Shown one piece after another: positions 46,515-46,539 of a DNA stretch of 64,000 nucleotides. This DNA is from Escherichia coli (GTDB taxonomy: Bacteria > Pseudomonadota > Gammaproteobacteria > Enterobacterales > Enterobacteriaceae): NCBI RefSeq assembly GCF_044647545.1, contig NZ_CP172818.1. One strand, written 5' to 3'. Position numbers and translations under genes: made by a program. Every line of letters begins with the position of its first letter. The first letter of the stretch is position 1. The notes beneath the pieces are model-generated. The model did not search any database. It had not been told where the DNA came from and saw nothing but the letters and a program-made list of their open reading frames with translations.

Positions 46515-46539
46515 AGAGGTCATACCAGTTATGACCTCT
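46515..46539. promoter_or_regulatory. Inverted repeat upstream of fadM; candidate FadR operator (may also act as ybaV terminator stem)
   Basis: agaggtcat/accagtt/atgacctct; minus strand reads AACTGGTATGACCTC, close to FadR consensus AACTGGTCNGACCTGTT. Confidence 0.45.

Follow-up and report, generated by a model that had tools for sequence, protein, structure and literature searches.

Can one short palindrome between two genes serve both as the operator of a repressor and as a selected stem-loop in the RNA that is transcribed across it? The question is raised by a 25-bp inverted repeat ahead of fadM in Escherichia coli, which we analysed within a 64,000-nt stretch of DNA (hereafter the window) whose open reading frames were listed by a program. 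The repeat lies in the ppiD–ybaV–fadM–queC neighbourhood. In a first-pass annotation, made from the sequence alone, it was taken as plausibly the FadR operator of fadM and, equally, as a possible terminator stem of ybaV. The two readings are not mutually exclusive, and our analysis makes it very probable that the fadM palindrome combines a FadR operator with a separately selected hairpin in plus-strand RNA.

That FadR acts at this gene is well documented. fadM is directly repressed by FadR (PMC9329746); wild-type FadR shifts a PCR fragment of the fadM promoter and the W60G mutant does not, and a fadM–lacZ fusion is 2.5-fold up in the fadR strain K113 (PMC4259882). Expression of fadM has a high basal level and depends weakly on FadR, an oddity that has been noted in reviews. 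The primary paper on the control of fadM by FadR is reportedly that of Feng and Cronan from 2009; the FadR operator ahead of fadM has counted as established knowledge since that year, and confirming it adds little. The genes at the locus are as follows.

44086–45957: ppiD open reading frame, the upstream neighbour of ybaV
46108–46479, plus strand: ybaV (helix-hairpin-helix, ComEA-like), whose transcripts run into the hairpin
46585–46983, plus strand: fadM, which codes for long-chain acyl-CoA thioesterase III; the gene under regulation
47035–47730, minus strand: queC open reading frame

A segment of 321 bp round the palindrome is present as a single copy in 5,423 of 5,426 complete E. coli genomes, with the RefSeq gene names ybaV and fadM. 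The palindrome itself occupies 46515–46539 (agaggtcat-accagtt-atgacctct), corresponding to 464344–464368 in K-12 MG1655. The letters first quoted for it and their perfect symmetry hold, but the arms, described as 9 bp long, are really 10 bp: a repeat finder returns perfect 10-nt arms at 46515–46524 (AGAGGTCATA) and 46530–46539 (TATGACCTCT) around the 5-nt loop CCAGT. Its placement just after ybaV and about 45 bp before the fadM start was also right, since it begins 35 nt past the ybaV stop codon and ends 45 nt ahead of the fadM ATG. Assuming uniform base composition, about 0.4 perfect 10-bp hairpins with a loop of 3–8 nt are expected by chance per 64 kb, and the palindrome by itself is only mildly unusual. 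As RNA, the hairpin has a folding energy of −14.1 kcal/mol, which is z = −3.1 relative to shuffled sequences.

The distance from the palindrome to the ATG is 12 bp shorter in MG1655, K-12 being without one copy of a repeat that contains CTTATAACA. Between the hairpin and the fadM Shine–Dalgarno sequence, positions 46543–46566 of the strain analysed here read CTTATAACAGTT then CTTATAACAACA, which makes the leader 12 nt longer than in K-12. A single copy of that 12-bp unit is found in K-12 MG1655 and in E. whittamii, and Tandem Repeats Finder makes no call on it.

A probable FadR operator in the left arm and loop

FadR sites share a 17-bp palindromic consensus, aaCTGGTCnGACC(T/A)Gtt (PMC9329746), from which the 17-mer at 46514–46530 departs by two mismatches when read on the minus strand and by three on the plus strand. 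The minus-strand reading given in the first-pass annotation, AACTGGTATGACCTC, is correct, and the closeness to the FadR consensus claimed there is borne out by counting: the site is the only match to AACTGGTCNGACCWGTT in the window at two mismatches or fewer, where 0.06 are expected, and any such match appeared in 4 of 100 shuffles. With 0.06 against about 0.4 expected per window, the consensus match is far rarer than the 10-bp palindrome. The operator and the parts of the stem-loop overlap as follows.

46514–46530, minus strand: 17-bp FadR operator of fadM (minus strand AACTGGTATGACCTCTT, plus strand AAGAGGTCATACCAGTT), by consensus, matrix and conservation
46515–46524, plus strand: left stem arm AGAGGTCATA, inside the operator
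46525–46529, plus strand: loop CCAGT, part of the operator half-site ACCAGT
46530–46539, plus strand: right stem arm TATGACCTCT, outside the operator save for its first base, 46530 (operator position 17)

A matrix scan with known FadR sites had been named beforehand as a check on the operator reading. We built a log-odds matrix from eight other fad operators, leaving fadM out, with the sequences ATCTGGTACGACCAGAT for fadB, AAGTGGTCTGACCTGAT for fadI, AAGTGGTCAGACCTCCT for fadE, ATGTGGTCGGATGAGTT for fadH, AGCTGGTCCGACCTATA and CACTGGTCTGATTTCTA for fadL, and AGCTGGTATGATGAGTT and GGCTGGTCCGCTGTTTC for fadD. All eight were found in MG1655, each within the expected upstream spacer, at 2 to 7 mismatches from the consensus; fadB, fadL and fadE have three mismatches each, fadD and fadH four each, and fadI two, the same as the fadM site. 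The fadM site scored 21.2 bits and ranked first of 127,968 window positions (runner-up, 15.3), above every leave-one-out score among the training sites.

Within the ybaV–fadM spacer there is no second FadR candidate, the next-best consensus match having six mismatches. Because FadR binds the fadM promoter in the published work and the spacer offers no other candidate, binding is best placed at 46514–46530, and we strongly infer that this 17-mer is the published fadM site. The first reading of the palindrome as a FadR operator is thus upheld by the consensus match, the matrix rank, the uniqueness of the site in the spacer, its conservation (below) and the published control of fadM by FadR. A text search of papers for the operator sequence returned no match. 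The operator takes up the left arm and loop only (46514–46530), and the right arm holds no operator half-site. A second FadR site that would make use of the right arm was considered and rejected: the register 46524–46540 has six mismatches and a bad left half, and the spacing of the arms varies.

Like the operators of fadBA, fadL, fadD, fadE, fadIJ and fadH, the fadM site forms an imperfect palindrome of 17 bp that matches the FadR consensus and probably lies at the promoter of a gene for fatty-acid degradation. It is as good a site as that of fadI and better than those of fadB, fadL and fadE, and is nearest in sequence to the fadE operator. Unlike the other fad operators, it sits off-centre in a perfect inverted repeat that extends beyond it, with 10-bp arms of which the second is no half-site, and repression of fadM is weak, at 2.5-fold in the fadR mutant. 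In the mechanism that we propose, a ligand-free dimer of FadR, a winged-helix protein of the GntR family, would occupy the imperfect inverted half-sites AGAGGTC and ACCAGT and block RNA polymerase; long-chain acyl-CoA would free FadR, so that fadM would be derepressed together with the other fad genes.

Conservation and loss of the operator

To follow the element across species we collected fadM loci from 80 genomes, one per species, of Escherichia, Salmonella, Citrobacter, Enterobacter, Kluyvera, Kosakonia, Leclercia, Lelliottia, Trabulsiella, Raoultella and other genera. All 80 carry it. Among about 85 enterobacterial fadM loci the core AGAGGTCATACCAGT is almost invariant across genera: the GAGGTC and ACCAG columns hold without change in at least 79 of the 81 aligned sequences of Enterobacteriaceae, and the central operator N varies freely. 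The bases of the loop, which are unpaired in the hairpin, are likewise invariant in 79 of 81 sequences. As the invariant ACCAGT half-site sits in an unpaired loop, the stem cannot explain its conservation, and a sequence-specific reader is needed, which fits FadR.

The core also reaches beyond close relatives. In more distant genomes, retrieved by a search of cluster representatives (other protein searches returned close relatives only), AGGTCATACCAGTT stands upstream of FadM homologues with only 51–64% identity. One such genome (L097/L098) has two tandem FadM-like thioesterase genes, at 1501–1899 and 2172–2594, between ybaV and queC. The core AGGTCATACCAGTT precedes each of them, and the queC-proximal one, whose product is 63% identical to E. 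coli FadM, is without the right arm.

In the Klebsiella/Raoultella clade (K. pneumoniae and relatives, L089–L092, with L036 and L079) the half-sites have decayed, to AGAGGTCACACAAGT, AGAGGTCGCATCAAGT, AGAGGTTGCATCAAGT (K. pneumoniae) and AGAGGTTACATCATCT, which suggests that fadM may have left the FadR regulon there. Elsewhere the spacer has been invaded. Three Citrobacter loci (L010, L012 and L014) and three Kluyvera loci (L064, L067 and L069) carry ERIC-like insertions of about 130 bp between the element and the fadM ribosome-binding site, roughly 30–170 nt upstream of the ATG; the operator, the hairpin and the conserved block upstream of them (described below) are intact at all six.

Selection on the stem in plus-strand RNA

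In plus-strand transcripts the right arm would pair with the left arm to form a 10-bp stem-loop. The hairpin is present in all 80 sampled genomes and, in addition, in Klebsiella, in Cronobacter and at one more distant locus. By parsimony on the fadM tree, the right-arm positions opposite the left-arm G, A, G, G and C have changed 0–2 times, against 7–19 times for the flanking columns. The changes that do occur follow the logic of base pairing in RNA. At right-arm columns 24 and 27, A and G have replaced one another about 11 and about 15 times, giving U·G, and the neighbouring stem columns change only with compensation; C-to-T changes in the right arm give G·U, and its sole T-to-C change is always paired with an A-to-G change in the left arm (Pluralibacter and Entomohabitans). 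All 47 one-sided changes yield G·U when read on the plus strand, where the minus strand would have A·C, and the plus-strand fold is the more stable of the two in 59 of 74 sequences.

Across the 10 pairs, 60 distinct sequences have standard pairs in 97.7% of cells, with both sides changed in nine cells, and sliding the partner columns lowers pairing to 34–58%. The observed covariation score was reached by none of 500 shuffles of these 60 sequences, a control that ignores phylogeny. On a first, less diverse alignment the same kind of test, in which the shuffles ignore relatedness, was weak (24 of 500). For these reasons we give more weight to the substitution pattern. Covariation in the stem is modest, because the operator freezes the left arm.

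Two further observations bear on what is being selected. The outer arm-to-arm distance ranges from 24 to 28 nt among genera; with such variable spacing, no dimeric DNA-binding protein reads both arms. The left arm is variable in Klebsiella and Raoultella, and all of its variants remain able to pair with TGTGACCTCT by way of C–G, U·G or G·U. The simplest reading of these alignments is that the stem is selected independently of FadR, in RNA of the plus strand, which is the strand of both ybaV and fadM.

The competing account is that the element is an operator and nothing else, with a functionless right arm and a perfect palindrome that arose by coincidence or as a by-product. The chance expectation of about 0.4 such hairpins per 64 kb is compatible with it, as is the weak shuffle test on the first alignment, and the operator alone accounts for the left arm and the loop. 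It has no explanation, however, for a right arm that lies outside the 17-mer and yet barely changes between fast-changing flanks, for changes in that arm that almost all form G·U or are compensated, or for a stem that outlives the decay of the operator in Klebsiella. We regard this account as very unlikely.

The stem-loop belongs to no family of Rfam 15 at the gathering score; an overlap with DapZ, on the minus strand, is noise (17.8 bits against 56, E = 3.3). Gathering-level Rfam matches elsewhere in the window are sraA (40892–40987, minus strand) and the small SRP (4.5S) RNA (58639–58735, plus strand).

Candidate promoters around the operator

Within the 105-bp ybaV–fadM spacer the operator occupies the stretch 55–71 nt ahead of the fadM ATG, where it would overlap either the +1 of an upstream candidate promoter or the −35 region of a downstream one. 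The candidate elements are the following.

46485–46490, plus strand: candidate −35, TTGCAT; across about 84 loci TTGC is at least 95% conserved and keeps a constant 16 nt from the −10-like hexamer
46504–46512, plus strand: candidate extended −10, TGc followed by CAGACT; TTTGCCA and the last T are at least 95% conserved and the middle of the hexamer varies
46545–46550 and 46557–46562, plus strand: two TATAAC hexamers downstream of the hairpin, alternative −10 candidates

In 75 of 84 sequences the upstream block, TTGCnn-16 nt-TTTGC-CAnnnT, stops at a constant 3 nt upstream of GAGGT. Within it TTG, TG, the A at position 2 of the hexamer and its final T are invariant, and variation falls in the spacer and in the central hexamer bases, a pattern that resembles a sigma-70 promoter with an extended −10. 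Klebsiella retains this block despite the decay of its operator. Downstream of the hairpin, AT-rich −10-like hexamers are found in most genera at varying positions and with varying sequences; in the window the second TATAAC comes from the 12-bp stretch that is absent in K-12. A simple promoter consensus scan calls neither the upstream block nor the TATAAC candidate. No start of transcription for fadM alone was found in Kim 2012 or Mendoza-Vargas 2009, and Yan 2018 and Cho 2014 list only ppiD–ybaV–fadM units.

FadR sites generally lie at about −6 to +12 (PMC9329746), and the operator would take up about this position relative to the upstream candidate, whose predicted start, at about 46518–46520, falls inside it. 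From the comparison of loci we think it probable that FadR occludes the upstream promoter TTGCAT-16 nt-TGcCAGACT (46485–46512). A promoter with its −10 at a downstream TATAAC and the operator over its −35 region is the alternative, and a rather unlikely one.

Other arrangements were discarded. The right arm does not fit as the −35 hexamer of a promoter built on the downstream TATAAC, from which it is separated by 8 nt in K-12 but by 20 nt in the window. A sigma-54 promoter in TGGCAA-N-TTGCC (46493–46508) has a GG-to-GC spacing of 9 rather than 10, and its left half is not conserved. The same positions, just past the ybaV stop, form a perfect 6-bp inverted repeat, TGGCAA-TTTT-TTGCCA, of which only the right half, TTTGCCA, is conserved; to judge from the alignment, this is probably not a selected hairpin.

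Candidate roles of the stem-loop

Which transcripts carry the stem-loop can be read in part from published maps. SMRT-Cappable-seq recorded ppiD–ybaV–fadM as one transcript starting at 461852 (Yan 2018), and the same three genes are listed as a transcription unit (Cho 2014). With such transcripts on record, polymerase must cross the hairpin, and the hairpin is transcribed. Its role would then most likely be either that of a leaky terminator or 3′ protector for ppiD/ybaV transcripts, or that of a stabilizing, 5′-proximal stem-loop in the fadM leader.

The first of these is our tentative preference. As a leaky terminator, an insulator or a 3′ protective stem-loop for ppiD/ybaV transcripts, the hairpin would limit FadR-independent read-through, block 3′ exonucleases or do both. 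The outer pairs, 46515–46517 with 46537–46539, are conserved and need an RNA that begins upstream of 46515; read-through transcripts exist; and the Cronobacter version of the hairpin is a canonical terminator. On the other side, the Term-seq tables of Adams 2021, as far as they were available to us, hold no 3′ end after ybaV. The one locus at which a paralogue separates ybaV from the fadM orthologue, where neither gene keeps a strong hairpin, does not bear on which of the two the hairpin follows.

The second role is possible, and we hold it with somewhat greater reserve. Here the hairpin would be a 5′-proximal stem-loop of the fadM mRNA, transcribed from the conserved upstream promoter-like element and guarding against decay that depends on the 5′ end. 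The TTGCnn-16-TGcCAnnnT block is conserved at a fixed distance; at L095 the hairpin ends 18 nt before the ATG, too close for a promoter to fit in between; and RNA from 46518 would still fold a 7-bp hairpin at its extreme 5′ end. However, the block fails the consensus scan, and a start at the predicted 46518–46520 would prevent the three outer pairs from forming, yet their right-arm bases are conserved. Since these outer bases are conserved although they would be unpaired in an mRNA of fadM alone, we argue that read-through RNA from ybaV/ppiD is among the RNAs under selection. The 3′-protector and leader-stabilizer roles are not exclusive.

Stabilizing stem-loops are known in other mRNAs, among them the 5′-terminal hairpin of the ompA leader and the REP element that serves as a 3′ protective hairpin in malE–malF. 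The fadM stem-loop resembles both in being conserved within an untranslated leader or intercistronic region and in keeping its pairing rather than the sequence of its free arm. Unlike the malE–malF element, it is no REP sequence and is without an Rfam match; a stabilizing role would be one by analogy.

That the palindrome is an efficient rho-independent terminator of ybaV in E. coli, its resemblance to a FadR site being secondary, is most improbable. The hairpin has what an intrinsic terminator requires of its stem (10 bp with 4 G–C pairs, −14.1 kcal/mol, 35 nt past the ybaV stop) and so shares with rho-independent terminators a stable 10-bp stem and 5-nt loop just past a stop codon. What it lacks in E. 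coli is the U-tract: the tail, GTACTTAT (GUACUUAU), has T at 4 of 8 positions, non-contiguously, and a terminator scan makes no call at the hairpin. The first eight tail bases include 1–5 T in 85 of 86 sequences; the exception is Cronobacter, with seven, whose homologous hairpin is followed by a U7 tract (GTTTTTTTAT; GUUUUUUUAU) and is called terminator-like. A d'Aubenton-Carafa-type score, uncalibrated with modern energies, gives −49 for the fadM hairpin, −8 for the ppiD terminator and +3 for Cronobacter. The ppiD–ybaV–fadM transcripts are a further departure from rho-independent terminators, as is the invariance of the unpaired loop bases, which is not required of a terminator. The missing 3′ end after ybaV in the Term-seq tables, as available, points the same way, weakly, ybaV being poorly expressed. 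A canonical or efficient intrinsic terminator is thus not supported in E. coli. Since the Cronobacter hairpin carries a U tract, it is plausible that the stem-loop terminates transcription in some lineages and that in E. coli it does so leakily. Of the suggestion that the palindrome is a terminator stem of ybaV, then, the conserved plus-strand RNA hairpin survives, and the canonical terminator, without a U-tract and crossed by transcripts, does not.

The terminator of ppiD lies upstream of ybaV, at 46002–46031, and consists of the hairpin AAAAGGTCGC-TTTC-GCGGCCTTTT followed by CCATTTCT. In the Term-seq data of Adams 2021, in the part available to us, the ppiD 3′ end maps at MG1655 463858, which is 46029 in the window. 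A sub-threshold, partial Rfam match to STnc540 covers 46000–46085. The same part of Adams 2021 places a minus-strand 3′ end antisense to fadM, at about 46890 (MG1655 464707), presumably from queC transcripts that run into the convergent fadM gene.

A short upstream open reading frame beginning at the right-arm ATG (46531–46572; 13 codons, MTSVLITVLITTT in this strain), with the A/G variation reflecting ATG and GTG starts, is scarcely credible: an SD-like AGAGG does stand 11 nt ahead and the E. coli stop overlaps the fadM Shine–Dalgarno sequence, but the encoded peptide may have as few as 5 or more than 50 residues, three taxa have lost the start codon (to GCG), length, frame relative to fadM and start codon are not conserved across genera, residues past position 3 are unrelated between genera, and the stem would bury the start codon as well as the SD-like sequence.

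Discussion

On the evidence assembled here, the 25-bp palindrome would carry two overlapping functions, an operator at the level of DNA and a hairpin at the level of RNA. The operator was known, and we found no earlier description of the hairpin in the literature searched; the only new element is the dual DNA and RNA use of the 25 bp, together with a possible link to the basal expression of fadM. The two functions are separable in evolution, since Klebsiella has kept only the hairpin and a distant locus only the operator. That the same 25 bp serve as the operator of a repressor and also as an RNA stem-loop under selection, with the hairpin either insulating fadM from ppiD–ybaV read-through or setting the stability of its leader, is a fuller proposal, for and against which we find the case almost evenly balanced.

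The locus offers a clean example of DNA-level and RNA-level constraints that overlap on one short element. Overlap of this kind can mislead motif-based reconstruction of regulons, as the Klebsiella palindrome could pass for an operator. For fadM itself, read-through from ppiD–ybaV across a hairpin that does not terminate transcription would explain the high basal expression of the gene.
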